DNA from: a virus
Taxonomy: Duplodnaviria; Heunggongvirae; Uroviricota; Caudoviricetes
Strand: one strand, 5' to 3'
Length of the DNA stretch: 37,129 bases
IMG/VR virus record: IMGVR_UViG_2872174743_000010
Location: 1 to 37,129 of that record
The notes below the pieces were generated by a model, which was given only the letters and a program-made list of their open reading frames with translations, was not told the DNA's origin and did no database searches. Position 1 is the stretch's first letter, and each line of letters starts with the position of its first letter. Position numbers and translations under genes: made by a program. Positions 3,407 to 23,371 of this stretch are shown here, piece by piece.

Positions 3407-3680
3407 ATGAGCAGAAAAAACCAACGTTACTCTAAAGAGTTCAAAGCCGAAGCTGTCAGAACGGTTCTTGAAAATCAACTTTCGATCAGTGAAGGCGCTT
3501 CCCGATTATCCCTTCCTGAAGGCACTTTAGGACAATGGGTTACCGCCGCCAGAAAAGGGCTCGGTACTCCTGGTTCCCGCACGGTGGCTGAACTGGAATC
3601 TGAAATTCTGCAACTGCGTAAGGCGTTAAATGAAGCTCGCCTTGAGCGATATATATTAAAAAAAGCAACAGCGTATTTTG
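3407..3680 (+). pseudogene. IS600 OrfA, truncated at the IS66-family insertion point
   Basis: MSRKNQRYSKEFKAEAVRTVLENQLSISEGASRLSLPEGTLGQWV...ILKKATAYF; contains the A-rich slippery run TTAAAAAAAG; reading continues into the IS66 inverted repeat (GTAAGCG at 3681). Confidence 0.8.
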
Positions 3681-3766
3681 GTAAGCGTAAACTGACCGCC
3701 GTATGTAGCCATTAAGCCTGTATTGGTAACGTAGGTGCCCACCTTTTCAACTAGTGGACACCTGTT

Positions 3767-4186
3767 ATGGAACAGAAAGCATTATCTGCAGAACCCCGCA
3801 GATCATTTTCAAATGAGTTTAAACTTCAAATGGTTAAACTGGCTTCACAACCAGGAGCCTCTGTTGCCCGTATTGTCCGGGAACACGATATCAATGATAA
3901 CCTGCTGTTCAAATGGCTCAGGCTCTGGCAGAACGAAGGGCGCATATCGCGGCGTCTTCCGGTAACAACCTCTTCTGACACTGGCGTTGAATTATTACCT
4001 GTGGAGATAACGCCGGATGAGCCGAAAGAACCGGTGGCTGCTCTTACTCCGTCTTTATCTACTCAGACTACAGTTAGTGCCAGCTCCTGCAAGGTGGAGT
4101 TCCGTCACGGTAACATGACGCTGGAAAATCCTTCACCAGAGCTGCTCACAGTGTTGATCCGTGAACTGACCGGGTGGGGACGATAA
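3767..4186 (+). CDS. tnpA: IS66-family accessory protein TnpA
   Basis: 139 aa with ...FSNEFKLQMVKLASQPGASVARIVREHDINDNLLFKWLR..., the IS66 orf1 pattern; stop overlaps the next gene. Confidence 0.85.
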   Translation: MEQKALSAEPRRSFSNEFKLQMVKLASQPGASVARIVREHDINDNLLFKWLRLWQNEGRISRRLPVTTSSDTGVELLPVEITPDEPKEPVAALTPSLSTQTTVSASSCKVEFRHGNMTLENPSPELLTVLIRELTGWGR

Positions 4187-4533
4187 TCTCACTCCCGTCA
4201 GGCACCCGCATCTGGCTCGTTGCTGGGATAACCGATATGCGTAAGTCTTTCAACGGGCTGGGTGAACAGGTACAGCATGTGCTGAATGATAATCCCTTCT
4301 CCGGTCACCTGTTCATCTTCCGTGGCCGACGGGGTGACATGATTAAAATCCTGTGGGCTGATGCTGATGGTCTGTGCCTGTTCACCAGACGCCTGGAGGA
4401 AGGCCAGTTTATCTGGCCTGCTGTGCGTGACGGCAAGGTATCCATTACCCGCTCGCAACTGGCAATGCTCCTCGATAAGCTGGACTGGCGTCAGCCAAAA
4501 ACATCCCGCCTTAACGCACTGACAATGTTGTAA
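4174..4533 (+). CDS. tnpB: IS66-family TnpB (orf2)
   Basis: GTG start overlapping the tnpA end; ...GTRIWLVAGITDMRKSFNGLGEQV...GHLFIFRGRRGDMIKILWADADGLCLFTRRLEEGQFIWP. Confidence 0.85.
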   Translation: MGTIISLPSGTRIWLVAGITDMRKSFNGLGEQVQHVLNDNPFSGHLFIFRGRRGDMIKILWADADGLCLFTRRLEEGQFIWPAVRDGKVSITRSQLAMLLDKLDWRQPKTSRLNALTML

Positions 4534-4563
4534 AAATGTCATGGCCGGATTATAAAAACGGCC

Positions 4564-6156
4564 ATGAATCAAAAATACCTCATTCGCATTGCAGAACTGG
4601 AATGCCAGCTCCGTCAGAAAGACCAGCAACTGAGTCTGGTTGAAGAGACGGAGGCCTTCCTGCGCTCTGCACTGGCCCGCGCCGAAGAAAAGATCGAAGA
4701 AGATGAACGGGAAATAGAACATCTGCGGGCTCAGATAGAAAAACTGCGCCGGATGCTGTTCGGTACCCGTTCTGAAAAACTGCGTCGTGAAGTTGAACAG
4801 GCTGAGGCCCTGCTGAAACAACGCGAACAGGACAGTGATCGTTACAGTGGGCGGGAAGACGATCCGCAGGTTCCCCGCCAGTTGCGACAGTCTCGTCATC
4901 GTCGCCCGTTACCGGAGCATCTGCCCCGCGAAATAAATCGCCTGGAGCCAGAAGAAAGCTGTTGCCCGGAGTGTGGCGGTGAGCTGGATTATCTGGGGGA
5001 AGTCAGCGCAGAACAACTGGAACTGGTGAGCAGCGCTCTGAAAGTGATCCGCACAGAACGGGTAAAAAAAGCCTGTACAAAATGTGACTGCATCGTTGAA
5101 GCACCGGCACCATCCCGTCCGATAGAGCGTGGTATCGCGGGCCCGGGGTTACTTGCCCGCGTGTTAACGGGAAAATACTGCGAACACCTGCCACTGTATC
5201 GTCAGAGTGAAATTTTTGCCCGTCAGGGTGTCGAACTGAGCCGTGCATTACTCTCCAACTGGGTTGACGCGTGCTGCCAGTTAATGACGCCGCTGAATGA
5301 TGCTCTGTACCGTTATGTGATGAACAGCCGCAAAGTTCACACTGATGACACACCAGTAAAAGTGCTGGCACCGGGCAGGAAGAAGGCGAAAACAGGATAT
5401 ATCTGGACGTATGTCCGGGATGACAGGAATGCCGGTTCGCCAGAGCCTCCGGCGGTCTGGTTCGCCTACTCACCGGACCATCAGGGTAAACATCCGGAGC
5501 AGCACCTTAGTCCCTTCCGGGGTATCCTGCAGGCAGATGCGTTTAATGGTTACGATCGGCTGTTCAGTGCCGAACGAGAAGGCGGCGCGTTGACGGAAGC
5601 AGGATGCTGGGCTCATGCGCGGCGCAAAGTCCACGATGTATATATCAGTACCAAAAGCGCGACAGCGGAAGAAGCCCTGAAACTAATCGGTGAGCTGTAC
5701 GCCATCGAGCACGAAATACGCGGGTTGCCGGTGTCTGAACGCCTGGCGGTCAGGCAAATGCAGAGTAAACCGCTACTGACTTCCCTGTATAAGCTGATGC
5801 AGGAGAAAGAACAGACGTTATCGAAAAAATGCCGTCTGAGAGATGCGTTCCGGTATATCAGGAAGCACTGGGTTGCGTTGTGCAACTTCAGTGATGATGG
5901 TCTGGCTGAGGCGGATAATAATGCCGCGGAAAGAGCGCTTCGTGCAGTCTGTCTCGGAAAGAAAAACTTTATGTTCTTCGGCAGCGATCACGGTGGAGAG
6001 CGTGGTGCGCTACTGTACGGGCTGATCGGCACCTGCCGACTGAACGGTATCGATCCGGAAGCGTATCTGCGCTATATCCTGAGCGTACTGCCGGAATGGC
6101 CTTCCAACCGTGTTGACGAACTCCTGCCATGGAACGTAGCACTCACCAATAAATAA
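4564..6156 (+). CDS. tnpC: IS66-family transposase TnpC
   Basis: 530 aa; coiled-coil N-terminus, CCPECGG zinc motif, DDTPVKVL, WAHARRK, ADNNAAERALR and [15 protein letters not shown] motifs, all characteristic of IS66 transposases. Confidence 0.9.
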   Translation: MNQKYLIRIAELECQLRQKDQQLSLVEETEAFLRSALARAEEKIEEDEREIEHLRAQIEKLRRMLFGTRSEKLRREVEQAEALLKQREQDSDRYSGREDDPQVPRQLRQSRHRRPLPEHLPREINRLEPEESCCPECGGELDYLGEVSAEQLELVSSALKVIRTERVKKACTKCDCIVEAPAPSRPIERGIAGPGLLARVLTGKYCEHLPLYRQSEIFARQGVELSRALLSNWVDACCQLMTPLNDALYRYVMNSRKVHTDDTPVKVLAPGRKKAKTGYIWTYVRDDRNAGSPEPPAVWFAYSPDHQGKHPEQHLSPFRGILQADAFNGYDRLFSAEREGGALTEAGCWAHARRKVHDVYISTKSATAEEALKLIGELYAIEHEIRGLPVSERLAVRQMQSKPLLTSLYKLMQEKEQTLSKKCRLRDAFRYIRKHWVALCNFSDDGLAEADNNAAERALRAVCLGKKNFMFFGSDHGGERGALLYGLIGTCRLNGIDPEAYLRYILSVLPEWPSNRVDELLPWNVALTNK

Positions 6157-6249
6157 GCGTCAATACGGTGCTCCGTTGACGCCTGATATGACTTTCCGTG
6201 TCAAACCGGAATCTCTAATTTTGACGATTTTCTTTTTAGGTTTAATTCC

Positions 6250-6435
6250 CTGAGGGCGACGTAGCAGTAAATCCGACGGTGAATCACGCTGATATTCGCG
6301 GGTTGGATACCGCATTACAGAGGTCCGTCATATGAGCCTGCCACTTTCTTACGTCGCGAATCAGCTTTGTTCCGCCGTCGCCAAGCGCTAACGTGGGTTA
6401 CTCTTGTACCGGGCTACGTCGCCTTCAGGGAACTG
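6250..6435 (-). ncRNA. Candidate structured non-coding RNA (bridge-RNA-like) in the IS110-family non-coding end
   Basis: Non-coding stretch just downstream of the transposase stop with nested complementarity: CCCTGAGGGCGACGTAGC (about 6248-6265) pairs 17 of 18 with GCTACGTCGCCTTCAGGG (about 6413-6430); GCTGATATTCGCG (about 6288-6300) pairs with CGCGAATCAGC (about 6355-6365); repeated TACGTCGC motifs. Strand and ends are inferred, not shown. Confidence 0.3.
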
Positions 6436-6449
6436 GTTATTCTCATTTT

Positions 6450-7577
6450 TTATTTGTGACATTGTGGTTGTTGTGCGACAGACATTGCTATTCGGCCCAT
6501 ATCCCAGATAAAACCCGCCAGCTCACGTGCAACAGCAACAATTGTAATATTGACATTCTTTCCTTTGGCCTGAAGTTTTCGATACCTCTTACAGAGCCTG
6601 AGTTGAGCATCCCATGCTCTGTCAATGACGGGGCGGGGTAAATTTTCCTGCCTTTTTTGTATTGCCGGACTGATGCGTGCCGGATGACGGTAACTCCACG
6701 CTGCCTCGACCAATAGCTTTCTGGCATAGCTGTTTCCGGCTTTGGTAATGCTGCCCTGATGTCTGCTTCCACCCGATGAATATTCTGATGGCGTGATACC
6801 AAACCATGACATCAGTTGTCGTGGATGTTCAAAACGGGTCAGATCACCCAGTTCAGAAATTAATCCAACCGCAGTAATAAACTGAATCCCTCGCATGGCT
6901 TGCAGCGCCTCTACTACCGGATACAGCCTCCATTCGGTAACGGCCTCCTTCAGGGCGGATTCCAGCCGTTCACATTGTGCCTGCCGGTCTTCTATTGTAC
7001 GACGGTGTTCGTCAAAAGCTAATTGTCGCCAGGGACTTTCGAATGAGTATTTGCTGAGCCAGCGTCGGTGTGCAGGGCCCCAATCTGCTCGCCCGACATA
7101 ATGGACCCCATGAACCAGAAGAAACGATTTCAGACGTTGCCTTGCATGCCGTAAATCATCGCGGGCAGATGCCCATGCCCGGGCCAAATCCCGGAATGCC
7201 TCATCTTCAATGCCGGGTACGTAGACAGCAGAAAGATCTCCTGCACGCAGTGAACGCACAAGTCTGATGGCATCACGGCGATCGGTTTTAACCCGCTCCC
7301 CCGGTTTTTTCGGGATAAGTGAGGGGGCGCAGACCATGCAGTCAAAACCGGATTTCACCAGCCGACGATAAAGTCCATAACCACAGGGCCCCGCTTCATA
7401 AACGATACTGACCTGCGATGACTTTGACCTGAGACGTTTACAAAGATTCTGAATATCAGTAGGTGATGTGCCAATTTTACCCATCAGTTCAACAGGTTCT
7501 GAATTGATAGCATAAGCGACAGTAATCGATTCTTTGTGAACATCTAACCCGACGTACAATGTGTTATTGTTGTTCAT
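6450..7577 (-). CDS. IS110-family transposase/recombinase (DEDD type)
   Basis: Start at the Met of MNNNNTLYVGLDVHKESITVAYA (GGAGG-like RBS upstream); N-terminal RuvC-like DEDD region and C-terminal ...GSITKAGNSYARKLLVEAAW... serine-bearing domain typical of IS110/IS1111 transposases. Confidence 0.85.
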   Translation of the reverse strand: MNNNNTLYVGLDVHKESITVAYAINSEPVELMGKIGTSPTDIQNLCKRLRSKSSQVSIVYEAGPCGYGLYRRLVKSGFDCMVCAPSLIPKKPGERVKTDRRDAIRLVRSLRAGDLSAVYVPGIEDEAFRDLARAWASARDDLRHARQRLKSFLLVHGVHYVGRADWGPAHRRWLSKYSFESPWRQLAFDEHRRTIEDRQAQCERLESALKEAVTEWRLYPVVEALQAMRGIQFITAVGLISELGDLTRFEHPRQLMSWFGITPSEYSSGGSRHQGSITKAGNSYARKLLVEAAWSYRHPARISPAIQKRQENLPRPVIDRAWDAQLRLCKRYRKLQAKGKNVNITIVAVARELAGFIWDMGRIAMSVAQQPQCHK

Positions 7578-7779
7578 GCTGGCCTCCGTGGTGGAAATAC
7601 CGGGGGGTAGCAACAGCTCACCCATGCGGCTCTGACAACGATGTTAACCCGCGTTAAATATCCCACGTTGGCCAGCATCTGTCTCACGGAAAGTCATACT
7701 GCCTTACGTATTTTGCACAGGAGTCGCTGATAAATACGCGTTAATCGAACAATGGCGACAACAATTTCCCATTGAAGCG

Positions 7780-8598
7780 ATGTGTCAGGTATTTGGTGTA
7801 TCCAGGAGCGGTTATTACAACTGGGTACAGCATGAACCCTCAGACAGAAAACAAAGTGATGAGCGGCTAAAACTGGAGATTAAGGTGGCACATATCCGCA
7901 CTCGCGAAACATATGGAACCCGGCGGCTCCAGACGGAGCTGGCAGAGAATGGCATCATCGTTGGTCGTGACCGACTGGCACGTCTTCGTAAGGAGCTAAG
8001 GCTACGCTGTAAGCAGAAACGCAAGTTCAGAGCGACTACGAACCCGAACCACAATCTGCCAGTTGCGCCAAATCTGCTGAACCAGACGTTCGCTCCTACA
8101 GCACCAAATCAGGTCTGGGTGGCGGACCTGACGTATGTTGCCACACAGGAGGGATGGTTGTACCTCGCTGGCATCAAAGATGTTTATACGTGCGAAATTG
8201 TCGGCTACGCCATGGGAGAGCGCATGACAAAAGAGCTGACAGGTAAAGCCCTGTTTATGGCGCTCAGGAGCCAGCGCCCACCTGCCGGGTTAATCCACCA
8301 CTCTGATCGAGGTTCACAGTACTGCGCATACGATTACCGGGTCATACAGGAGCAGTCTGGTCTGAAAACATCAATGTCGCGTAAAGGTAACTGTTACGAC
8401 AACGCTCCGATGGAAAGCTTCTGGGGAACGCTGAAAAATGAGAGCCTGAGCCACTATCGTTTTAATAACCGGGATGAAGCCATCTCAGTAATACGGGAAT
8501 ACATTGAGATTTTCTACAATCGTCAGCGTCGTCACTCTCGTCTGGGGAATATCTCCCCGGCAGCCTTCAGGGAAAAATATCATCAGATGGCTGCTTAA
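7780..8598 (+). CDS. IS600 OrfB (DDE catalytic part)
   Basis: MCQVFGVSRSGYYNWV...VWVADLTYV...HHSDRGSQYCA...NCYDNAPMESFWGTLKNE..., the IS3-family integrase core; the orfB frame is open upstream from about 7648, as expected for an OrfAB fusion. Confidence 0.85.
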   Translation: MCQVFGVSRSGYYNWVQHEPSDRKQSDERLKLEIKVAHIRTRETYGTRRLQTELAENGIIVGRDRLARLRKELRLRCKQKRKFRATTNPNHNLPVAPNLLNQTFAPTAPNQVWVADLTYVATQEGWLYLAGIKDVYTCEIVGYAMGERMTKELTGKALFMALRSQRPPAGLIHHSDRGSQYCAYDYRVIQEQSGLKTSMSRKGNCYDNAPMESFWGTLKNESLSHYRFNNRDEAISVIREYIEIFYNRQRRHSRLGNISPAAFREKYHQMAA

Positions 8599-8977
8599 AA
8601 AAAGAACAAATGGTAGTGTCCGCTATTGCCAGTACACCTCAGGCAGACCATCAGTCATACCGGGATTAAAAAATGGCTGTGGAGAATCAGAAAAATTCTC
8701 CAGCAAAAAGGTGACCCGGATTTAATACAATGTGATTACCATCTCTGCAATAAACAGTTTTTACCTGAAAAAGCTTTTACTGGCGAGCTTATTTATATGC
8801 ATGGAAACATGATTGCCAGAAAGAAACGAAAATATTGCGGTGCAGCTTGTGCCGAAAAAGACAAGATGGCACACGAACTTTAATTAACTGAATATTCGAA
8901 ACTGAATTTATGCCAGCAATGGGGTAATGCTGCCAACTTACTGATTTAGTGTATGATGGTGATTTTAAGGTGCTTGC

Positions 8978-9253
8978 GTGGCTTCCATTTCCATCAGATG
9001 TCCTTCCTGCTCCGCTACTGAAGGCGTGGTGCGTAACGGCAAAAGCACTGCCGGACATCAGCGCTATCTCTGCTCTCATTGCCGTAAAACATGGCAACTA
9101 CAGTTCACTTACACCGCCTCTCAGCCCGGTACGCACCAGAAAATCATTGATATGGCCATGAATGGCGTCGGATGTCGCGCCAGTGCACGCATTATGGGCG
9201 TTGACCTCAACACGGTTTTCCGTCACTTAAAAAACTCAGGCCGCAGTCGGTAA
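8978..9253 (+). CDS. insA: IS1 InsA
   Basis: [43 protein letters not shown]... Confidence 0.9.
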
Positions 9254-9279
9254 CCTCGCGCATACAACCGGGCAGTGAT

Positions 9280-9571
9280 GTGATTGTCTGCGCTGAAATG
9301 GACGAACAGTGGGGCTACGTCGGTGCTAAATCACGTCAGCGCTGGCTGTTTTACGCGTATGACAGGATACGGAGGACGGTTGTGGCGCACGTCTTCGGTG
9401 AACGCACTCTGGCCACACTGGAGCGTCTTCTGAGCCTGCTGTCGGCCTTTGAGGTCGTGGTATGGATGACGGATGGCTGGCCGCTGTATGAATCACGCCT
9501 GAAGGGAAAGCTGCACGTTATCAGCAAGCGTTACACTCAGCGCATTGAGCGACATAATCTGAATCTGAGAC
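9280..9571 (+). pseudogene. insB: IS1 InsB, 3'-truncated by the IS66-family insertion
   Basis: InsB frame reads ...[14 protein letters not shown] and then continues into IS66 DNA (RKRTA, stop), whereas the intact copy at 25340-25843 continues [13 protein letters not shown]... Confidence 0.75.
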
Positions 9572-9642
9572 GTAAGCGTACAGCCTGAACCGTCTGGTCA
9601 GAATCTGACGAATTAGACAAAGTGGTGTCCACCAAATAAGTA

Positions 9643-10044
9643 GTGGGAACCAAAGTGTCAGATATGCAGAAAAATGTGAATCCCGGCAGGCGAAAAGGCT
9701 GCCCTAATTATCCTCCCGAATTTAAACAGCAGCTCGTTGCTGCCTCCTGTGAACCCGGGATATCCATCTCAAAACTTGCTCTTGAAAATGGCATTAACGC
9801 CAATCTGTTGTTCAAATGGCGACAACAATGGCGCGAGGGAAAGCTGCTATTACCTTCTTCAGAGAGCCCCCAGCTACTTCCTGTGACTCTCGATGCAGCT
9901 GCCGAACAGCCAGAATCGCTCGCAGAGGATCCGGAAACCCTCAGTATCAGCTGTGAGGTAACGTTCCGGCACGGGACGCTCCGCTTCAATGGCAATGTCA
10001 GCGAAAAGCTCCTGACTCTGCTGATACAGGAACTGAAGCGATGA
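9643..10044 (+). CDS. tnpA: IS66-family TnpA (copy 2)
   Basis: ...PEFKQQLVAASCEPGISISKLALENGINANLLFKWRQQWREG...; start uncertain (GTG at 9643 or ATG at 9664). Confidence 0.8.
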   Translation: MGTKVSDMQKNVNPGRRKGCPNYPPEFKQQLVAASCEPGISISKLALENGINANLLFKWRQQWREGKLLLPSSESPQLLPVTLDAAAEQPESLAEDPETLSISCEVTFRHGTLRFNGNVSEKLLTLLIQELKR

Positions 10045-10388
10045 TCCCGTTACCTTCCGGGACCAAAATTTGGCTGGTTGCCGGTATCACCGATATGAGA
10101 AATGGCTTCAACGGCCTGGCGGCAAAGGTGCAGACGACGCTGAAAGACGATCCGATGTCAGGTCACGTTTTTATCTTCCGTGGGCGTAATGGCAGTCAGG
10201 TAAAGCTCCTCTGGTCTACCGGCGATGGACTGTGTCTGCTGACCAAACGGCTGGAGCGCGGCCGCTTCGCCTGGCCGTCAGCCCGGGATGGCAAAGTGTT
10301 CCTCACACCGGCACAGCTGGCGATGCTCCTTGAAGGTATCGACTGGCGGCAGCCTAAAAGACTGCTTACGTCCCTGACTATGTTGTAA
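10041..10388 (+). CDS. tnpB: IS66-family TnpB (copy 2)
   Basis: MIPLPSGTKIWLVAGITDMRNGFNGLAAKV...; ATG overlaps the tnpA stop (ATGA). Confidence 0.85.
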   Translation: MIPLPSGTKIWLVAGITDMRNGFNGLAAKVQTTLKDDPMSGHVFIFRGRNGSQVKLLWSTGDGLCLLTKRLERGRFAWPSARDGKVFLTPAQLAMLLEGIDWRQPKRLLTSLTML

Positions 10389-10436
10389 GCCTCTTTATCC
10401 TGGTCGACGCTGAATGAGCCTGGTAATATACCCGGT

Positions 10437-11975
10437 ATGAGCAGCTCACTTCCTGACGATATCAATGCACTGAAACGTCTCCTTGCCGAACAGGAGGCGC
10501 TGAACCGTGCCCTGCTGGAAAAGCTGAACGAGCGTGAACGCGAAATAGACCATCTGCAGGCACAGCTGGATAAGCTGCGCCGGATGAACTTCGGCAGCCG
10601 CTCCGAAAAAGTCTCCCGTCGTATCGCACAGATGGAAGCTGACCTGAAGGCACTTCAGAAAGAAAGTGATACCCTTACCGGTCGGGTTGACGACCCGGCC
10701 GTGCAGCGCCCGCTGCGTCAAACCCGCACCCGCAAACCGTTCCCCGAATCACTCCCCCGCGATGAAAAACGGCTGCTGCCGGCAGCGTCATGCTGCCCGG
10801 AATGTGGAGGCTCACTGAGCTATCCGGGTGAGGATGCCGCCGAACAGCTGGAGTTGATGCGCAGCGTCTTCCGGGTTATCCGGACTGTACGTGAAAAGCA
10901 TGCCTGTACTCAGTGCGATGCCATCGTGCAGGCCCCCGCGCCTTCACGGCCCATCGAGCGGGGTATCGCAGGACCGGGGCTGCTGGCCCGCGTGCTGATC
11001 TCAAAGTATGCAGAGCACACCCCGCTGTACCGTCAGTCTGAAATGTACGGCCGCCAGGGCGTGGAGCTGAGTCGTTCACTGCTGTCGGGCTGGGTGGATG
11101 CATGCTGCCGGCTACTGTCACCGCTGGAAGAAGCGCTTCAGGATTATGTGCTGACTGACGGTAAGCTCCATGCTGATGACACGCCTGTCCCGGTGCTGTT
11201 GCCAGGCAATAAGAAAACGAAGACCGGGCGGTTATGGACCTACGTTCGTGACGACCGTAACGCCGGGTCAACGCTGGCGCCGGCGGTGTGGTTCGCTTAC
11301 AGCCCGGACAGAAAAGGCATCCATCCGCAGACCCATCTTGCGGGGTTCAGTGGTGTACTGCAGGCGGATGCATACGCCGGGTTCAACGAGCTGTACCGGG
11401 ATGGCCGGATAACGGAAGCCGCCTGTTGGGCTCACGCCCGCCGTAAAATCCACGATGTGCACGTTCGCACCCCGTCAGCCCTGACGGAGGAAGCGCTGAA
11501 ACGGATCGGCGAACTGTACGCCATCGAGGCAGAGATAAGGGGAATGACGGCGGAGCAGCGCCTTGCCGAACGTCAGTTGAAAACGAAACCGCTGCTGAAA
11601 TCCCTGGAAAGCTGGCTGCGTGAAAAGATGAAAACCCTGTCGCGACACTCAGAACTGGCGAAAGCGTTCGCATACGCCCTGAACCAGTGGCCGGCGCTGA
11701 CGTACTATGCAGATGATGGCTGGGCTGAGGCGGACAATAACATCGCTGAAAATGCGTTGCGGATGGTCAGTCTGGGCCGCAAAAACTACCTGTTCTTCGG
11801 TTCGGATCATGGAGGAGAGCGGGGAGCGCTGCTGTACAGCCTGATCGGGACGTGCAAACTGAACGGAGTGGAGCCAGAAAGCTACCTCCGCTATGTACTT
11901 GACGTCATAGCCGACTGGCCGATAAACCGGGTCGGCGAACTGCTCCCCTGGCGCGTAGCACTGCCGACTGAATAA
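10437..11975 (+). CDS. tnpC: IS66-family transposase TnpC (copy 2)
   Basis: 512 aa with the same motif set as copy 1 ([48 protein letters not shown]), but clearly diverged from it. Confidence 0.9.
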
Positions 11976-12012
11976 CACATCCCCGTCAATACGGTTCTTG
12001 CTGCACGCTTAC

Positions 12013-12910
12013 CATTGACGGGCGTGGTCTGGCTGGCGAGATCAGCAAGGAAACGGGTAAATCCCTGCGTGATAACGCTGAATACGTTAATCCCTGGGCG
12101 TCTCTGCATCGTGTTCAGCAATTCCGCTTCTTTGGTATTCCAGGGCGTCAGGCTTACCGTGAACTGCGGTTGTTGGCTGGTCAGGCGGCAAGGCAGCAGG
12201 GTGACAAAAAAGCAGGTGCGCCGGTACTGGATAACCCGCGCCTTGATGCCATCCTGGCTGCTGCTGATGCTGGCTGTTTTGCCACCTACATTATGAGGCA
12301 GGGCGGCGTGCTGGTTCCTCGCAAATATCACTTGATCAGAACCGCTTATGAAATCAATGAAGAGCCGACCGCCTATGGCGATCACGGTATTCGTATTTAT
12401 GGCATCTGGTCACCCATTGCAGAAGGCAAGATCTGCACTCATGCAGTGAAGTGGAAAATGGTTCGTAAAGCCGTTGACGTTCAGGAGGCGGCAGCCGACC
12501 AGGGCGCTTGCGCCCCTTGGACTCGTGGCAATAACTGTCCCCTTGCTGAAAATTTGAACCAACAGGAGAAAGATAAATCAGCTGATGGGAACCCCAGAAC
12601 GGACATTACCAGCATGGATGACAAGGAGTTGCACGATTACCTGCACAGTATGAGCAAAAAAGAGCGCCGGGAACTGGCAGCAAGGTTACGCCTGGTGAAA
12701 CCGAAACGGCGTAAAGACTACAAACAGCGAATTACAGACCATCAGCGACTGCAGCTCGTGTATGAGCTGAAGTCCAGAGGATTTGATGGCAGCGAGAAAG
12801 AGGTCGATTTACTCCTTCGCGGAGGCAGTATTCCGTCAGGAGCAGGCCTGCGTATCTTCTATCGGAACCAGCGTTTGCAGGAAGATGATCAGTGGCGGAA
12901 CCTGTATTAA
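12013..12910 (+). pseudogene. Phage replication protein fragment (P2 gpA-like C-terminal part), 5'-truncated by IS66 copy 2
   Basis: The reading frame is open from the first base after the IS66 end with no start codon ([17 protein letters not shown]...[13 protein letters not shown]... to stop at 12910); position and orientation fit the end of the P2/186 early operon. Identity to gpA is by context, not by recognised motif. Confidence 0.4.
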
Positions 12911-13002
12911 TTACGCGGGTTAACAATTCGTGCTCTTAATAATACCAGGCATATCAGGCTGATGAACGTAAAAAAACGTTTTACATCAGTAAGATTATCA
13001 TA

Positions 13003-13022
13003 TACTGTAAATATAAACAGTG
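13003..13022 (+). promoter_or_regulatory. LexA (SOS) box overlapping a -10-like hexamer
   Basis: TACTGTAAATATAAACAGTG is CTGT-N8-ACAG with an AT-rich spacer, a near-consensus LexA operator; TATACT immediately overlaps it; about 40 nt upstream of the first gene of the pair. Confidence 0.6.
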
Positions 13023-13063
13023 GTTATGCATGCAGTATTGCGTGTGGTGTCATAGGAGGAAAG

Positions 13064-13252
13064 ATGCAGGACTATTTTTTGGAGTCTTTGAAGCTCCAGC
13101 GCATTGATTTTTTTCTTAAGCTTGTAGCGGCTAGTGAGTGTAGTGATGAAGAGAAGGGGCTGGCTCTGCAGTGGGTTTCTGAATTGACTGATGAACTCAT
13201 GGCAAAAATCAGAACCCACGAATACAACCGCTCAATGGATGTCATCAGCTGA
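13064..13252 (+). CDS. Small protein, first gene of the LexA-controlled pair (possible Tum-like antirepressor part)
   Basis: 62 aa from the Met preceded by AGGAGG: MQDYFLESLKLQRIDFFLKLVAASECSDEEKGLALQWVSELTDELMAKIRTHEYNRSMDVIS; no motif recognised. Confidence 0.45.
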   Translation: MQDYFLESLKLQRIDFFLKLVAASECSDEEKGLALQWVSELTDELMAKIRTHEYNRSMDVIS

Positions 13253-13262
13253 GGTGACTTTT

Positions 13263-13496
13263 ATGCGCATTGAAATAATGATCGATAAAGAGCAGAAGAT
13301 TAGCCAGTCTACCCTGGACGCTCTTGAATCCGAGCTTTACCGCAATCTGCGCCCTCTGTATCCCAAAACGGTAATTCGTATCCGCAAAGGTAGCTCTAAC
13401 GGTGTGGAACTTACCGGATTGCAACTGGACGAAGAAAGAAAACAAGTGATGAAAATTATGCAGAAGGTGTGGGAAGACGACAGCTGGCTGCATTAA
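13263..13496 (+). CDS. DinI-like protein
   Basis: MRIEIMIDKEQKISQSTLDALESELYRNLRPLYPKTVIRIRKGSSNGVELTGLQLDEERKQVMKIMQKVWEDDSWLH, with the DinI pattern (MRIE..., ...WEDD.W); GAGGTGA upstream. Confidence 0.75.
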   Translation: MRIEIMIDKEQKISQSTLDALESELYRNLRPLYPKTVIRIRKGSSNGVELTGLQLDEERKQVMKIMQKVWEDDSWLH

Positions 13497-13631
13497 GAAA
13501 CGTTGCTGGCGTCTGAACTAGCTTCTGGCGTCAGCAAGGTTGAACAACGAGCCCTTGCGAGGCGTTAGCTCTGTAGTGCATGTCTATGCCGCATGAGATC
13601 GCATGATCGTTTGAGGATCGTTTTTGCTAAG

Positions 13632-13656
13632 GCCCGCCAGAACTGGCGGGCTTTTG
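13632..13656 (+). terminator. Intrinsic terminator candidate after the DinI-like gene
   Basis: GCCCGCCAG-AA-CTGGCGGGC followed by TTTTGCG. Confidence 0.5.
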
Positions 13657-13700
13657 CGTAGATCATGCAGGTGCATGAAAACCACTACATAAAGCGGGCA

Positions 13701-13719
13701 GGCGTGGCGGGGATACGAT
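13701..13719. other. cos-like site (19 nt)
   Basis: GGCGTGGCGGGGATACGAT; the first 13 nt and last 2 match the cohesive-end sequence of 186 as remembered (GGCGTGGCGGGGAAAGCAT), about 16 of 19; lies between the early and late blocks. Confidence 0.35.
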
Positions 13720-13788
13720 TGCGCGCTAGGTATAAGTGTGTAAAATAATTCCAAAATAAATCATCACTAATGAAGTGAGAGGGTAATA

Positions 13789-15438
13789 ATGTTAGTCAAG
13801 AAAAATAAAAATTATAGTTTATATTTTTTAATTACAAATAATCAACAGATATCTGATTCTGGTAATTATATAAAAATAGTCCCATCAAGAAGCGATTGGA
13901 ATGATTTTGGATATTTGAGTAGAGTCGAAATATCTATTTTTAATAAAAAAGAGTGTAAGGATATAATTTCACTGAATGGTTATATTGGTTTTTTGAATTC
14001 AGAGGAGGAACGAAATGGAAAAGCAGAACTGATAAGGCGAGTGAAAAAAAAGGAAGAATCTAATTTAAAGGATGAGGGGTTTAATGATTATTTTGTCATG
14101 CTTCAGGATATGAATAATTATCGAAGACTAGTAAGATTTTTTGGGGTGAATGAATCCAAATATATATTAAATTTCATTAATGATGTTGTTTCTAAGAAAA
14201 GTGACGCTAGTGCAGAGAATTTGAGGAAAAAAGCAATCTCTTCTGATATCTTTAATAAATCTTTCATTAGAGAGTCTGAGTCGTATTTTACTTTCAAAAA
14301 TGCAGGAACAGTTCTTTCCGGTATTCAATATGAGGAGTTGGGTAATTTATCACAGCACATCAAGATTAGCTATTCGAATAAAGTTAATGAAGAAGATGTA
14401 TCTTATGTTTTTAATTTTGATCACGAGCATGATTTACCAAAAAGAATTTCCATAATTATAGGCGAGAATGGTGTAGGAAAAAGCCAAACGCTTAGAGAAA
14501 TCGCATTGGCTGCGATTAAAGGAAAGGATAATTTGGTGGCTGTAGTTGATTCTAACGGTGTGAGCATTGAAGAACGAATTCAAATTAGTAGGCTCATTGC
14601 TTTTTCTCCAACAAATGAAAGTAAGTGTTCATTTCCAACCGATAAAAGAATAAAATCATTGATATGGTACAAAAGATTGACTTTAAATCGTGAATCAAAA
14701 TCCAAATTAAACTTGAATGATTTAATAGTGCAACTAGCGAGGAGTAACGACGCTATCGGCTATAATCAAAGGTGGAATATATTTGTTGATGCACTGAGTG
14801 TTCTAAATAGTAACAACGATTTAGTAATCAAATGTGGCGGTGAAAATTCACCATTTGTTAAATTAAATGAGCTTAATTCTCGAGGCGAAGAATCTAGACT
14901 ATCATTATATTCTGAAATTATTCTCTCTGGCGAGCCTTTGAGGCTTATTGAAAATAAATGTTACCCTTTGAGTAGTGGGGAAATATCGTTTATTAAGTTT
15001 TGTGTACAAGTTTGTTTGTATATTGAGAATGGGACTCTTCTATTAATAGATGAGCCAGAAACACATCTCCATCCTTCATTTATTAATAAATTTATGGCAT
15101 TGCTTGATAATTTATTAGAAAAGACAGGCTCTTCAGCTATCATAGCAACGCATTCGGTTTATCTTGTTCGGGAGGTTTTTAAGGAGCAAGTGACAATACT
15201 CAGAAGACGAGATGATGGGGTAATTGTTAGCGAAAAACCGAGATTGAGTACTTTTGGGGCGAATATAGGAAATATCTCATATTTTGTTTTCGGTGAGAGT
15301 GAACCAACTCAAATTTTAAATAAAGTAAAAAACAATATAATTGCAAAGAATATGTCTTGGGATGATGTTGAATCTAAATATAGCGAGGACTTATCACTTA
15401 ATGTATTAACTGCGTTGAGAAATGAAATGGGCAATTGA
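13789..15438 (+). CDS. ABC-type ATPase (AAA_21/AAA_15-like), Septu PtuA-like, with a ~215 aa N-terminal extension
   Basis: 549 aa; Walker A GENGVGKS (aa 225-232, nt 14461-14484), signature-like YPLSSGE (about aa 393-399), Walker B LLLIDEPE (aa 417-424), H-loop-like IIATHS (about aa 451-456); very AT-rich; GAGAGGG RBS. Confidence 0.7.
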   Translation: MLVKKNKNYSLYFLITNNQQISDSGNYIKIVPSRSDWNDFGYLSRVEISIFNKKECKDIISLNGYIGFLNSEEERNGKAELIRRVKKKEESNLKDEGFNDYFVMLQDMNNYRRLVRFFGVNESKYILNFINDVVSKKSDASAENLRKKAISSDIFNKSFIRESESYFTFKNAGTVLSGIQYEELGNLSQHIKISYSNKVNEEDVSYVFNFDHEHDLPKRISIIIGENGVGKSQTLREIALAAIKGKDNLVAVVDSNGVSIEERIQISRLIAFSPTNESKCSFPTDKRIKSLIWYKRLTLNRESKSKLNLNDLIVQLARSNDAIGYNQRWNIFVDALSVLNSNNDLVIKCGGENSPFVKLNELNSRGEESRLSLYSEIILSGEPLRLIENKCYPLSSGEISFIKFCVQVCLYIENGTLLLIDEPETHLHPSFINKFMALLDNLLEKTGSSAIIATHSVYLVREVFKEQVTILRRRDDGVIVSEKPRLSTFGANIGNISYFVFGESEPTQILNKVKNNIIAKNMSWDDVESKYSEDLSLNVLTALRNEMGN

Positions 15439-16303
15439 AATGAATAAATTAAAAAGACCTGTTTTTAAAGATTATTCTGCATTTAAAAAACTATCTGCAA
15501 ATAAGAGATTAAAACATCATTCTGTTCTGAATGGACAGGATACATTTATACTTAATGCATATAGATCGTACATAAAGAATAAAGGGTATCTTAATGTCAA
15601 TTCTTGTGGCGTATTGAGTAACAATATTGCTGAAGCTTTGAGATATTATTATAACAATCCCGCAAAGTGTTTATCTATAATTGATGATATAAGAGCAGCT
15701 AATTCTAACTCTCTATGTCCAATGTGTGGTTCAATGCATAGCGGGACTTTGGATCATGTTTTACCCAAGGAAAACTATCCAGAATTTTCTTTATTCACTA
15801 AGAATTTGGTTCCTGCTTGCAAATGTAATACTTTCAAAAGTACTACTATAGCTAATTCTGCAGGCCATCGGATGCTGCATCCATATTTTGATAATATATT
15901 AAAACAAAGATTAATATGTGCTAATTTTTCTAAATTAGGGCGAACACCTACAATTGATGTAAAAATCATAATTGACCCAATGTCACCAGAATATAACAAT
16001 GTTAAGTATCATCTTGATAATGTTGTTATCAAGAATAATATTAAGGGGTATTTGTCTGAACAATGGGAGTCGTTTTACTTATATCCTGAGCTTGTTATTA
16101 GAGGACTGAATAAGAGTCTTTCTACTTATAGCGATGTATATGAGTTGTTGACTCGCGAGTTGTTGCTGTTGGATGAAAAACATAAAGGTAAAAATAATTG
16201 GAATTCGGTTTTTGTAGCTGGGTTAATTCGACCTGATGTGATTAGGTGGATACTCTGTGAATTACATTTAGGTAACAGAAGTCCAGACGGTCGTCTCATA
16301 TGA
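15422..16303 (+). CDS. HNH endonuclease, Septu PtuB-like
   Basis: 293 aa; HNH core CPMCGSMHSGTLDHVLPKENYPEFSLFTKNLVPACKCN (aa 99-136); start overlaps the upstream stop by 17 nt (a second in-frame ATG sits 1 nt after the stop). Confidence 0.7.
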   Translation: MKWAIEMNKLKRPVFKDYSAFKKLSANKRLKHHSVLNGQDTFILNAYRSYIKNKGYLNVNSCGVLSNNIAEALRYYYNNPAKCLSIIDDIRAANSNSLCPMCGSMHSGTLDHVLPKENYPEFSLFTKNLVPACKCNTFKSTTIANSAGHRMLHPYFDNILKQRLICANFSKLGRTPTIDVKIIIDPMSPEYNNVKYHLDNVVIKNNIKGYLSEQWESFYLYPELVIRGLNKSLSTYSDVYELLTRELLLLDEKHKGKNNWNSVFVAGLIRPDVIRWILCELHLGNRSPDGRLI

Positions 16304-16410
16304 TTTTTTGCATCTTCAGCGTGTATCTGCACGCTGAAGAAATTCATAAAAACTGCTGCCTATTAATAAATTTTTTTAGCTGAGTTAAAGAACCTCATTT
16401 AGTGATTACG

Positions 16411-17445
16411 TTAAGTAGCTAGTTTATAACTATCAAATTTAACAATGTTATCACTTACCAATTTATTTATTTCCATCATTCTTTTTTGTAACGGTATTAA
16501 CTCGTTACGTACAAACACCAGGCTCGCCTTCTCCACATCCCCAAACCCCCCGACATTATTAGGCATAATCCCCATCATTTGCGGTGGCACACGATGCGCC
16601 GCCATCATGTCATCCCGGCTCACGTTCTTGATGTTCAGAAACTCATCCTTCGCCGCGACTTCTGACAACGGGATGATCTGAAGCCCGTCCTTTTTGCCGT
16701 TAGGCGAGTACATAAACAGATTGCGGAAGTTACCTGGTCCTTTGGCGCTTTTCATCGCATTGCGGAGGTTGTTCACATCCTCCTGGTTTTGCGCGGCATC
16801 GGTCATGTACATGATGAAGCCTGCATGACTGCCGTTAATGTAATACTATCGGCGGAACAGCGTGGCGGACTCGTTGAGCAGGGCTGACGGAATGGCAGAA
16901 AGGTAACCTGGCAGGCCGTAGATCTCTTGGTTGATGTCCGGTTCCATCAGATGAAAGATGCTTCCTTTCGTGAACTGATACGGCTGCGTGGTCATGCCGT
17001 ATTGCACAAACCAGTAGGTATCCAGGTCTAATCCGCGTCGGGTGTATTTTGCCAGAGCAGGCTCAAGAGCGATGACCTCTCCGAACCGGTTTGTGCGTTT
17101 CTCCAGGTAAGCGTTACCAAATACCAGATAATCCTGCACAAAACGTGAAAAAGCCTGCTGGCTGAGCAGCGGGTGAGGGATGTAGGTACTGATCAGAATG
17201 TTGCATTTCACCGCAATTGGTGAACTGTGATGCACGGCGGCGCGGAAGGTGCGCGCCAGTCCGTCAAAACTCACTGGCGGCTCATACCAGCGATCTGTCT
17301 GTACGCATTCCACATAGTCCAGTAGTTCACGGCGGTCCAGAACCGGAACGGGATCGCCGAAGCTGAATGCTTCGGCTGAAGTCTGGTTTTTATGCTGGGT
17401 CTGTTTCGTCGCCGCAGCGCGGTTCTTCTTACTCTTTCCCATCAA
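16411..17445 (-). pseudogene. Q: Portal protein (P2 gpQ-like) interrupted by an in-frame TAG
   Basis: Track ORFs 16846..17445 and 16411..16812 are in the same frame; protein reads ...ATLFRR-stop-YYINGSHAGFIMYMTDAAQ...; the TAG is at 16846-16848 on the minus strand. Confidence 0.8.
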
Positions 17446-19208
17446 AAAATCTCCACAATATTGCTGGTATTGGCGGACTCGCCCTGCAGCGGTTCGTTAA
17501 ACAGTGCGTGCATTGTTGCCCAGGCCAGATCGGCATGGCTGGCTTCTTCGCTGCGGCTGGCTTCATAGGTCGGGCGGTTGCCGCTGGCGGTGGTGGCGCG
17601 ACGGATTGCCATGAATGACTGCGCAATGTCGGTGTGCCCGGCGTCAAACTCAAGACGGCGGTGGCTGATAATGTCGTAGGCCTTGAGTACCAGGGCGTTT
17701 TTAACGTTGGGGTTGTAGACAAACTCCCGGACGGCAGGAAAAAACGCTTTCACGTTCTCGTAAACCCCGTGACCAACGCCGGTTGAGTCGATGCCGATAT
17801 AGGTCACGTTGTACTGTTCAGTCAGTTTTTTGATGGCGTAAGCCTGGGCGCGAAAGTCCATTCCGCGCCACTGGTGACGCTCAAGAATGCGGAACTTACC
17901 GCCTGGCACGGCTGGCGGTGCCACCACCACGCATCCGGCGCTGTCGCCGTTCTGCGTACCTTTTGCCGGGTCATAACCGATCCACACTTCGCGCCAGCCA
18001 AACGGGCGCAGGGCCAGTGCATGAAAGTCGGTCCAGACTTCCCAGCTGTCCACCATGCACGCCTGCAATTCGCTGAGCGGGAACACGGACGCGAGATCGT
18101 CCACGAACTCGCACATCAGCAGGTTCTGGTATTCGTCAGGGCTGTACTCCATGCGCAACTGGTCAAGGTCGAACAGGTTACAGGCGCCGCGCACCGCATC
18201 TTCCACGGTGACTATCTGGCGGTATTGCCCGTCTGCGCACAGCAGGCCGGGGGCCAGATTGCTGTGGGACAGGTCGATGTCCACCTTGTCAGCTTTGTTG
18301 CGCCCACGGTTGAACAGCGCACCGGACCAGAACGGATAAGCACTGTGGGTCAGACTGGATGGTGTGGAAAAATAGGTCTGCCGCCATTTCTTGTGAATAG
18401 CCATACCAGAAGCCACTTTGCGTAGCTCCTGAAATTTCGGTATCCAGAAATATTCATCCAGATACAGGTTACCGTGATAACTCTGGGCAGTGCGGGCATT
18501 GGTGCCGAGGAAATACAGTGTGGCCCCGTTGGGAAGCACCATCGGATCGCCTTTCAGCTCCACCTCCACTTCTTTGGCAAAGTCGATGATGTACTGTTTG
18601 AAGACGTGGGCCTGTGCCTTACTGGCAGAAAGGAAAATCTGGTTACGTCCGGTAAGCAGGGCGTCAATCAGGGCTTCACGGGCAAAATAGAAGGTCGCGC
18701 CGATCTGGCGTGACTTCAGCAGGTTGCGGATGCGGTTGGTTTTTCCGGCTTCCCACCAGTGGCGCTGGTAGTTGAACATGGAGGAATGGAAATTTTTTTC
18801 CAGCTTCTCAATCTGGTCATCGGTGAAAACATTCTTTTCAGGCTGACGGCGTGGGCCTTTGTTGCGGTTGGCGACGTTAGGGTTTAAGTCGGCTTCGTTG
18901 CCGCCATTGTTAAACTTGCCGATCCGCGCGTGGCGCTCAGACTGGCGCGCCAGCAGGTCAATATCTTTGAAATCTTTCCCTTCTTTGTGCTCCTTCATGA
19001 TGAGCTGGCAGTAGCGTGCGGCGGTGGTGAGCTGCATCTGATCCAGAGGCCCATAGTCACCCCACTTGTCGCGTTTTTTCCAGCTGTAAACGGTTGCAAC
19101 TTTCTCGCCCAGCATTTCAGCAATGCGGGCTACGCGGTATCCCTGAAAGTACAGCAGCATGGCCTGCCGACGGGGATCGAGATCTGCGGGTGTCAGTGTG
19201 GTGTTCAT
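17442..19208 (-). CDS. P: Terminase large (ATPase) subunit, P2 gpP-like
   Basis: 588 aa; collinear with P2 gpP as remembered; start overlaps the portal gene. Confidence 0.9.
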   Translation of the reverse strand: MNTTLTPADLDPRRQAMLLYFQGYRVARIAEMLGEKVATVYSWKKRDKWGDYGPLDQMQLTTAARYCQLIMKEHKEGKDFKDIDLLARQSERHARIGKFNNGGNEADLNPNVANRNKGPRRQPEKNVFTDDQIEKLEKNFHSSMFNYQRHWWEAGKTNRIRNLLKSRQIGATFYFAREALIDALLTGRNQIFLSASKAQAHVFKQYIIDFAKEVEVELKGDPMVLPNGATLYFLGTNARTAQSYHGNLYLDEYFWIPKFQELRKVASGMAIHKKWRQTYFSTPSSLTHSAYPFWSGALFNRGRNKADKVDIDLSHSNLAPGLLCADGQYRQIVTVEDAVRGACNLFDLDQLRMEYSPDEYQNLLMCEFVDDLASVFPLSELQACMVDSWEVWTDFHALALRPFGWREVWIGYDPAKGTQNGDSAGCVVVAPPAVPGGKFRILERHQWRGMDFRAQAYAIKKLTEQYNVTYIGIDSTGVGHGVYENVKAFFPAVREFVYNPNVKNALVLKAYDIISHRRLEFDAGHTDIAQSFMAIRRATTASGNRPTYEASRSEEASHADLAWATMHALFNEPLQGESANTSNIVEIF

Positions 19209-19254
19209 GGCACAAACCTACAGCCTTGAATGAAGGCTTTCCCCGCCTGCGGTT

Positions 19255-20184: not shown

Positions 20185-20200
20185 TGGAGCACAAAACCTG

Positions 20201-23370: not shown

Positions 23371-23371
23371 A

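Follow-up and report, generated by a model that had tools for sequence, protein, structure and literature searches.

The window analyzed here, a stretch of 37,129 nucleotides, carries an IS66-family element with IS1 on its left side and a gpA-like phage replication gene on its right side, and the question raised by this locus is how one element came to join these two flanks. A preliminary description of the sequence had proposed an IS-mediated deletion or inversion, rather than a simple insertion, that removed the early/immunity region of the prophage. The window matches CP026834.1 over 21650/21650 and 10970/10970 nt and UYIT01000003.1 over 10633/10633 nt (100% identity in each case), and its assignment to Shigella was based on the species given in NCBI protein names ("Shigella dysenteriae" and "Shigella boydii").

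An ISEc22 copy with unequal flanks

The element, hereafter copy b, is a complete ISEc22 of the IS66 family located on the plus strand at positions 9572-12012 (2441 bp); the span originally given for it, 9564-12020, does contain the element and also includes both 8-bp flanks. It showed 99.7% identity over 2441/2441 bp to many independent entries annotated as "IS66-like element ISEc22" in E. coli genomes, found on chromosomes and plasmids and in many contexts. Its termini, GTAAGCGTACAGCC... and ...GCTGCACGCTTAC, form imperfect terminal inverted repeats, and the element boundaries were identical across all ISEc22 copies retrieved. Copy b contains three consecutive open reading frames on the plus strand, all scoring above the NCBIfam cut-offs, by which it belongs to the IS66 family: tnpA (9643-10044; NF047595, 97.4 bits, cut-off 74) and tnpB (10041-10388; NF033819, 119.9 bits, cut-off 50), both coding for IS66 accessory proteins, and tnpC (10437-11975; NF033517, 465 bits, cut-off 180), coding for a DDE transposase of 512 aa. 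Copy b thus shares with ISEc22 the three IS66 reading frames, the GTAAGCG... termini and the 99.7% identity. A length of 2454 bp has been given for ISEc22 (PMC5001619), whereas the copies studied here measure 2439-2442 bp. The other IS66-family element of the window (3681-7707), which had been counted as a first copy of the same element, turned out to be a different one with its own intact duplication. Recombination between these two elements within the window was considered and rejected, since they are only about 70% alike, and this only in patches.

The left flank of copy b corresponds to the first 649 of the 768 bp of IS1 (8923-9571, plus strand), comprising the left inverted repeat, insA and most of insB, and it is cut by ISEc22. 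Identity to the complete IS1 of the window (25091-25858) begins at 8923 and stops exactly at 9571, the last 119 bp being absent. The left half-site of the insertion into IS1, read directly, is TCTGAGAC (9564-9571, plus strand). The right flank is the last 898 nt of gpA (12013-12910, plus strand), which codes for codons 507-804 and the stop codon of a 186-type replication endonuclease. This fragment lacks a start codon and matches no Pfam domain by itself, and it is 99.6-99.7% identical and colinear with nt 1518-2415 of the 2415-nt gene in the intact prophage of E. coli UPEC-245U. In the full-length protein of 804 aa, the Pfam domain Phage_GPA spans residues 188-510, which places the break at the end of the catalytic domain. 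The fragment begins with CATTGACG (12013-12020, plus strand), the right half-site of the original insertion into gpA; intact gpA contains this octamer once at the insertion position (9001-9008 of the reference locus). The description of the flanks as IS1 and a replication gene was therefore correct, and on re-inspection the 8-mers TCTGAGAC and CATTGACG did indeed differ, leaving copy b without an 8-bp direct target duplication. This absence is significant because other ISEc22 copies are flanked by perfect 8-bp duplications, both in the same genomes (5 loci) and in sister genomes; matching flanks are the norm for ISEc22, and copy b departs from it.

Searches with the junctions themselves were also carried out. 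Megablast of positions 8600-13600 against E. coli complete genomes gave no record in which ISEc22 adjoins gpA at this position; the best matches were chance IS1/IS66 neighbours. Exact-pattern scans of one-genome-per-species contigs found neither the IS1–ISEc22 nor the ISEc22–gpA junction, which means that this strain does not represent its species in that collection. The junction open reading frame gave no exact record in its 102-aa form with a GTG start, and its 96-aa ATG form has an exact match on record.

Partner half-sites and the early half of the prophage

Both missing partner half-sites were found on other ISEc22 copies, and it follows that copy b is a normal member of the ISEc22 family whose flanks were exchanged after insertion. 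Four copies, named here by their left and right flanks, carry cyclically permuted half-sites that form a closed cycle: copy a, gpA–ybgS (CATTGACG and ACTTAACT); copy b, IS1–gpA (TCTGAGAC and CATTGACG), in the window; copy c, zitB–tail (ACTTAACT and GATTTTGC); and copy d, tail–IS1 (GATTTTGC and TCTGAGAC). All four junctions are present on contig UYIT01000003.1. In CP026834.1, the reciprocal junctions gpA–ybgS and tail–IS1 carry the complementary half-sites; for copy c, direct readings come from UYIT01000003.1 and three sister genomes, its presence in CP026834.1 being only implied. The NCTC assembly is interrupted within copy b. Each pair of half-sites rejoins to uninterrupted natural sequence, namely gpA, IS1, the zitB-ybgS region and a DUF4376 gene. 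The outer flanks of the rejoined IS1 match those of a complete copy in sister genomes; the rejoined zitB-ybgS sequence occurs in 5426/5426 E. coli genomes (at least 99% identity in 3673 of them, and 100% among the matches listed), and the rejoined DUF4376 gene is found at 100% identity in 9 genomes. Variation among the ISEc22 copies amounts to 11 sites in total, and comparison of these 11 variable columns revealed no mappable crossover point or chimeric pattern.

The two pieces of sequence that the preliminary description had suggested searching for elsewhere in the genome were both located. The remaining 119 bp of IS1 adjoin the right end of copy d, preceded by TCTGAGAC. The early region of the prophage lies at 4298482-4305832 of CP026834.1 and comprises int', CI, apl, cII', dam and the first 1525 nt of gpA. 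Lying 17.7 kb to the left of the first base of the window and oriented alike, it ends in CATTGACG against copy a. The early/immunity region has consequently not been removed: the prophage is split in two, and its early half was moved by about 30 kb and not deleted. A homologue search with the truncated 455-aa gpA fragment yielded only full-length cluster representatives. The genes previously listed as missing (int, C, cox, B and A) were those of P2, and the region found, like that of the locus with intact gpA, is instead of the 186 type within the P2 family, with a CI repressor (PF07022/PF16452), CII (PF06892) and a Dam methylase followed by A.

In CP026834.1 the two halves of gpA are separated by 29.75 kb, and between them is a 24.9-kb stretch containing ybgS-gal-mod-ybhA and part of a lambdoid prophage. 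The order along the chromosome of the window is zitB, a forward ISEc22, the rest of the lambdoid prophage in inverted orientation, a reverse ISEc22, a block from ipaH and pgl to rcdA, int', CI and the 5' part of gpA, and a forward ISEc22; then follow ybgS-aroG-gpmA-gal-mod-ybhA, the left part of the lambdoid prophage and the 5' part of IS1, another forward ISEc22, and the 3' part of gpA up to ogr-rybB-ybjL. Both the order of the blocks and their strands are consistent with the arrangement in the E. coli reference, zitB-ybgS-aroG-gpmA-gal-mod-ybhA-pgl-ybhD.

The intact counterpart of this prophage, a coliphage 186/P2-family prophage located at rybB-ybjL in UPEC-245U (NZ_CP049845.1), is colinear with positions 12013-25090 and 26337-37129 of the window (99.6-99.8% identity) and has the same attR flank (ogr followed by rybB, ybjL, ybjM and grxA). 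In contrast to it, the prophage of the window is dead, with gpA split and the portal gene broken; IS1 takes the place of about 4.6 kb of genes in the tail/baseplate region, and IS911 interrupts cII and other early genes.

Earlier states and the proposed route of rearrangement

Comparison with strains carrying the intact prophage, also proposed beforehand, was made on about 25 related genomes and pointed to an insertion followed by exchanges between ISEc22 copies. The gpA gene is intact in CP000036.1 (which we take to be S. boydii Sb227), CP162080.1, CP162059.1 and CP068090.1. In five sister genomes (CP026807.1, CP045784.1, PSSQ01000001.1, CP026840.1 and CP026825.1), ISEc22 interrupts gpA at the identical position with a perfect duplication (CATTGACG/CATTGACG). 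Because these genomes carry this duplication, the starting event at gpA was a simple insertion, contrary to what had been supposed. The ISEc22 copy in the tail gene is flanked by a perfect GATTTTGC duplication in CP026842.1. Both hybrids, zitB–tail and tail–ybgS, are found in CP026832.1; tail–ybgS occurs together with the unrecombined gpA–gpA copy in CP026807.1, PSSQ01000001.1 and CP026840.1, and zitB–tail together with gpA–gpA in CP026825.1. The intermediate state, with zitB–tail, tail–ybgS and gpA–gpA, was thus assembled piecewise from several genomes. As for IS1, the same copy is complete in sister genomes, between ydaE and a gene for a 147-aa protein, and in PSSQ01000001.1 it is complete and free of ISEc22. 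Among the genomes retrieved, no example of the unrecombined zitB–ybgS insertion was found.

From these data, copy b is very probably a recombinant ISEc22 generated by exchanges among ISEc22 copies after simple insertion. Its left end and flank would derive from an ISEc22 in the IS1 beside ydaE, in the lambdoid prophage, and its right end and flank from the ISEc22 in gpA of the 186-type prophage at rybB/ybjL, which had the normal CATTGACG duplication. The proposed starting point is a chromosome with four ISEc22 insertions, in the zitB/ybgS intergenic region (ACTTAACT), IS1 (TCTGAGAC), the DUF4376 tail-fibre-assembly gene (GATTTTGC) and gpA (CATTGACG), in which three reciprocal exchanges would have swapped the flanks of the 2.4-kb ISEc22 repeats. 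The most economical route would be three successive inversions between inverted copies. In the first, the zitB/ybgS copy and the tail copy would have given zitB–tail and tail–ybgS; the second and third, involving the gpA and IS1 copies, would have given gpA–ybgS, tail–IS1 and IS1–gpA. In a search over signed block orders, the shortest inversion-only path had three inversions, and two of the three shortest paths passed via the intermediate seen in sister genomes. The last two exchanges and their order are deduced, because neither an IS1-borne ISEc22 flanked by TCTGAGAC at both ends nor a second intermediate (tail–gpA, IS1–ybgS or gpA–IS1) was found among the genomes retrieved. The exchanges were presumably brought about by host homologous recombination of the RecA type and not driven by transposase. 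Of the two events named in the preliminary description, inversion agrees with this route, as does its view that an IS-mediated rearrangement underlies the missing duplication; there was no deletion, and the inversion was not a single one.

Several other origins of copy b were weighed. Removal of attL, int, the immunity region and the 5' half of gpA through a deletion mediated by ISEc22 or IS1 would be in keeping with the lack of the early region within the window and with the different flanks of copy b, and an IS-associated deletion did occur elsewhere in the same prophage, at the IS1 at 25091. However, CP026834.1 retains in the same chromosome the early genes from int' to the 5' part of gpA as well as the last 119 bp of IS1, and nothing has been lost from the DNA on the left side of the junction (the zitB-ybhA region, whose usual distance to the prophage is about 90 kb); all this makes a deletion extremely improbable. 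No more credible is the entry into gpA of a compound transposon (ISEc22, 24.9 kb, ISEc22) that would have created the CATTGACG duplication as it inserted. A 29.75-kb unit does lie between direct CATTGACG repeats with two ISEc22 in direct orientation, but a single ISEc22 occupies the same nucleotide with the same duplication in sister genomes. Furthermore, PSSQ01000001.1 has the segment elsewhere and its IS1 uninterrupted, so the gpA site was occupied before the segment arrived, and the donor junctions zitB–tail and tail–IS1 are reciprocal products that transposition does not leave behind.

Two further routes are each unlikely, although less so than the preceding ones. After the first inversion, the direct ISEc22 copies at tail–ybgS and in IS1 might have recombined to release a 27-kb circle, which then re-integrated at the ISEc22 in gpA; such a circle would hold one ISEc22 and the segment from ybgS to the 5' part of IS1. 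This route predicts identical final junctions and order with an equal number of exchanges, and the segment has no known essential gene; yet a non-replicating circle would have to survive until re-integrated, inversion-only paths are equally long, and no genome without the segment was seen among the related genomes sampled. Of similarly low probability is the formation of IS1–gpA and tail–IS1 together by one intramolecular replicative transposition of ISEc22 into IS1, which would produce an inversion and a new IS copy without an earlier simple insertion in IS1. The lack of a doubly flanked IS1 insertion among the genomes retrieved speaks for this event, as do the empty IS1 of the closest sister genome and the presence of the predicted products, a copy of the 8-bp target beside each of two inverted IS copies. 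Nevertheless, all the other ISEc22 copies examined had inserted simply, each with a direct 8-bp duplication. In addition, the two sites that took part in the first exchange (giving zitB–tail and tail–ybgS) are each represented by their two half-sites, CP026842.1 shows ISEc22 at the tail site as a plain insertion, and the sample behind the missing precursor comprises only about 25 related genomes. The transposition chemistry of the IS66 family is poorly characterised, and to our knowledge no replicative cointegrate pathway has been established for it; such a one-step origin, if true, would provide evidence from nature that the IS66 family has a replicative pathway that forms inversions. Successive exchanges between ISEc22 copies remain the preferred explanation of copy b.

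Implications and comparison with other IS-mediated rearrangements

Although of little importance beyond bookkeeping, this locus illustrates that in an IS-rich genome a missing target duplication beside a truncated prophage should not be taken as a deletion: the immunity/replication half that seems lost persists 30 kb away in the chromosome. It also provides a worked example in which 8-bp half-sites, followed across IS copies and sister genomes, lead to a three-step history of rearrangement in Shigella. A further exchange could remove the 29.75-kb segment bracketed by ISEc22, which carries gal, mod, aroG and gpmA, or relocate it once more.

Rearrangements between IS copies such as this one are of an already known kind, and ordinary for Shigella. 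As in other IS-mediated inversions and translocations of this genus, dispersed identical IS provide portable homology and the breakpoints fall at IS copies; some Shigella lineages show an enrichment of the IS66 family. Hybrid ("orphan") target-site duplications are a routine tracer of recombination between copies of elements such as IS26, IS1 and IS481, and the logic is the same here: a copy with unequal left and right duplications has arisen by exchange, and its partner holds the complementary pair. The usual case is a single swapped pair, whereas here a closed cycle of four members implies three exchanges. A previous survey, in which S. boydii was represented by just three genomes and S. dysenteriae by two, described ISs that enter a locus and later take part in rearrangements (Seferbekova et al., 2021; PMC8072062). 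Compared with that survey, the exchanges described here were traced nucleotide by nucleotide through the swapped 8-bp half-sites, and the ancestral and intermediate states were obtained from sister genomes.

Copy b of ISEc22 and its genomic setting

The IS66-family element under study, copy b of ISEc22, begins with GTAAGCGTACAGCC at 9572 and ends with GCTGCACGCTTAC at 12012 (window 8400-12600 read), a length of 2441 bp; the coordinates of the preliminary description (9564-12020) took in both 8-bp flanks beyond the element. Copy b was 99.7% identical over its full length to many elements annotated as ISEc22, which lie in unrelated settings on E. coli chromosomes and plasmids, and contained three ORFs above the NCBIfam cut-offs for IS66 TnpA, TnpB and TnpC. 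On its left, IS1 matches the complete copy at 25091-25858 without a break from 8923 to exactly 9571 (649 of 768 bp kept). On its right, the sequence from 12013 is colinear with the 3'-terminal 898 nt of gpA, the 2415-nt replication endonuclease gene, as found in an intact prophage of E. coli UPEC-245U (99.6-99.7% identity). The flanking 8-mers, TCTGAGAC on the left and CATTGACG on the right, do not match. Flank reading and alignments thus confirmed that copy b joins IS1 to a gpA-like gene with differing 8-bp flanks. Copy b is a normal ISEc22, matching duplications being the sole family feature that it lacks.

The prophage, previously called P2-type, has a 186-type gene set (CI, apl, cII, dam, A); its integration site adjoins rybB, between rcdA and ybjL. 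At its right end the window holds the native attR side, with ogr, RybB sRNA (105 bits; 34352-34430, minus strand, directly outside ogr), ybjL, ybjM and grxA; UPEC-245U has its prophage at this site too. Left of IS1, rcdA would be expected as the attL neighbour; the DNA there belongs instead to a lambdoid prophage (ydaT, cro, a dicA-like repressor, ydfA, rha, IS600, ydaE) that in this lineage lies between ybhA and pgl, ~90 kb off on the E. coli map. The window was 100% identical to chromosome CP026834.1 (21650/21650 and 10970/10970 nt; base 1 corresponds to position 4323573) and to contig UYIT01000003.1 of GCA_900618175.1 (10633/10633 nt), which ends inside copy b and whose proteins are labelled Shigella dysenteriae. 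Organism labels are NCBI protein names, and the sample comprised the genomes returned by exact-protein look-ups, about 25.

A closed cycle of half-sites

A look-up of the ISEc22 transposase gave further copies on the same contig, and the 8 bp on both sides were read for every copy. Several other copies had perfect duplications (GTTAATAT, GCTGATGC, CTTTGTTT, ACTCATCA, GCTAATCA), and four copies, a to d, formed a closed cycle of half-sites. Copy b has TCTGAGAC with the IS1 5' part on its left and CATTGACG with the gpA 3' part on its right. Copy a (CP026834.1 4305833-4308273, within the locus 4298482-4311849, L051) has CATTGACG and the gpA 5' part on the left, and ACTTAACT and ybgS on the right. 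Copy c has ACTTAACT and zitB on the left, and GATTTTGC and tail genes on the right. Copy d (CP026834.1 4197957-4200397, locus L066) has GATTTTGC with the DUF4376 tail-fibre-assembly ("tail") gene, ipaH and pgl on the left, and on the right TCTGAGAC followed by the 119 bp that the IS1 at copy b lacks, which start with AACATCTGGCAAGG. The flanks of copies a and d were taken from CP026834.1 itself, those of copy c from UYIT01000003.1 and three sister genomes. The search for the rest of IS1 and for the gpA 5' part, suggested earlier, therefore located them at copies d and a, respectively.

The region upstream of copy a contains int in two pieces, another IS, CI, apl, cII in truncated form, IS911, dam and the 5' 1525 nt of gpA, whose truncated product ends in KYISKNIDGKRTA*. 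The gpA halves of CP026834.1 are 29,752 bp apart in the same orientation. The DNA between them consists of two copies of ISEc22 plus 24,870 bp with ybgS-aroG-gpmA-galMKTE-modFE-acrZ-modABC-ybhA, the left portion of the lambdoid prophage and the IS1 5' part.

Judged by sequence comparison, the half-sites pair up as the original sequences at four of four sites. Intact gpA has a single CATTGACG precisely at the break point. The 119-bp IS1 piece at copy d is followed by TGGAATCGGAAGAG, the outer flank that sister genomes show for the complete IS1 after ydaE; on the left, the window's IS1 shares its flank with those complete copies. The composite from zitB through one copy of ACTTAACT to ybgS matched 5426/5426 complete E. 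coli genomes, at least 99% in 3673 and 100% among the matches listed; the composite DUF4376 sequence had a 100% match in nine E. coli genomes. Since both partner half-sites were found, the missing duplication of copy b is explained.

Order and mechanism of the exchanges

Comparison with strains having the intact prophage, as had been recommended, revealed intact gpA (804 aa, without ISEc22) in four relatives, CP000036.1 (which we take to be S. boydii Sb227), CP162080.1, CP162059.1 and CP068090.1. In five sister genomes (CP026807.1, CP045784.1, PSSQ01000001.1, CP026840.1 and CP026825.1) gpA carries ISEc22 at the same nucleotide and with a perfect CATTGACG duplication; these gpA-gpA genomes were 99.94% identical to the window across the next 15.9 kb. 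CP026842.1 has the tail-gene copy with GATTTTGC on both sides. The hybrid pair zitB-tail and tail-ybgS, pieced together from several genomes, occurs in genomes still in the gpA-gpA state: tail-ybgS in CP026807.1, PSSQ01000001.1 and CP026840.1, and zitB-tail in CP026825.1; CP026832.1 has both hybrids. PSSQ01000001.1 has a complete IS1 after ydaE, free of ISEc22. By these states, ISEc22 entered gpA in an ordinary insertion, against the earlier reading "rather than a simple insertion", and the exchange between the zitB/ybgS and tail copies came first. The junction at copy b arose later, after ISEc22 entered IS1.

The region was coded as signed blocks, A0 (up to zitB), A1 (ybgS to IS1 5'), A2 (IS1 3' to tail), A3 (rest of tail, ipaH, pgl to gpA 5') and A4 (gpA 3' onwards), with orientations checked against the E. 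coli reference order. The ancestral order is A0 I> A1 I> A2 <I A3 I> A4, and the observed one A0 I> -A2 <I A3 I> A1 I> A4. By breadth-first search, the shortest inversion-only route took three inversions between inverted copies; of three routes of this length, two include the state that sister genomes show. Exchange between the zitB/ybgS and tail copies would have produced zitB-tail and tail-ybgS, and two further inversions would have ended in the IS1-gpA junction. We infer host homologous recombination as the agent from the reciprocal, conservative pattern; with just 11 variable positions among the ISEc22 copies, the crossovers are unmappable.

The preliminary description had proposed an IS-mediated deletion or inversion. 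Inversion stands, as part of a three-step chain, whereas plain deletion between IS1 and gpA is refuted: the early region, the gpA 5' part and the IS1 3' part are all present in CP026834.1. Such a deletion would also have had to take out the ~90 kb between the lambdoid site and the prophage. Alternatively, in place of the last two inversions, a circle of ISEc22 and A1 could have been excised and then re-integrated into the gpA copy, a route as short as the inversion-only one. The last step may also have been a one-step replicative intramolecular transposition into IS1, in keeping with the finding that, among about 25 genomes, none had the precursor with ISEc22 in IS1 between matching half-sites. 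The 29.75-kb unit bracketed by CATTGACG looks like a compound transposon; this look is coincidental, because the gpA site is already occupied in relatives.

Other features and comparison with Shigella chromosomes

The companion element ("copy 1", 3681-7707) is not ISEc22 but a different IS66-family element, ~70% alike in patches only, of about 2515 bp without its insert. It sits in IS600 with a perfect 8-bp GTATTTTG duplication (3673-3680 and 7708-7715), and is a recent simple insertion, because IS600 is uninterrupted at this place in PSSQ01000001.1. An IS110-family element (about 6187-7698; transposase 6450-7625, minus strand, NF033542, 273.7 bits) with 14-bp inverted ends TATGACTTTCCGTG / CACGGAAAGTCATA is nested in its right terminal repeat, making a triple nesting. 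Upstream of the rha-family gene of the lambdoid remnant lie isrK (2494-2570, 63.8 bits) and C4 antisense RNA (2596-2683, 78.6 bits); a perfect 22-bp inverted repeat comes just before them, at 2266-2287 / 2399-2420.

The complete IS1 at 25091-25858 has unmatched flanks (TTAATGTCC and ATGCAGCCC), stands where the intact prophage of UPEC-245U has ~4.6 kb of genes from the tail/baseplate region. After it comes a 495-bp part of the tail-fibre invertible segment, in inverted orientation. Here the prophage did undergo an IS-associated deletion. The portal gene (Q; 16411-17445, minus strand) is split into two ORFs (133 and 199 aa) versus one 343-aa gene in UPEC-245U, and the tape-measure ORF has 773 aa versus 1025 aa, even though the two are colinear at the DNA level. 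Like the split gpA, both changes are signs of prophage decay. Downstream of gpA, in the P2-family variable region, a two-gene cargo (13789-16303; an AAA ATPase and a gene annotated as HNH endonuclease in UPEC-245U) matches the PADLOC candidate defence system PDC-M01A/B and, more weakly, PtuA of Septu; the full-length region occurs in only 3/5426 complete E. coli genomes.

Four other Shigella genomes have a further ISEc22 copy with unmatched flanks (CGTCTCCATTC and CGTTGAAATTTTG) beside this lambdoid remnant (about 205-2646 of loci L020, L021, L024 and L028); ISEc22-mediated exchanges are therefore recurrent in the group. The ydaT...ydaE-IS1-147aa block of the lambdoid prophage has opposite orientations relative to int'-IS911-ybhA in Shigella loci L019/L039 and L026/L044, which suggests that one more inversion took place independently of ISEc22, possibly between copies of IS911.

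This kind of event is already known. ISs integrate into a locus and later join in rearrangements, and IS66 is among the lineage-specific expansions (Seferbekova et al., PMC8072062). The case of copy b represents well-documented behaviour of IS-rich Shigella chromosomes.
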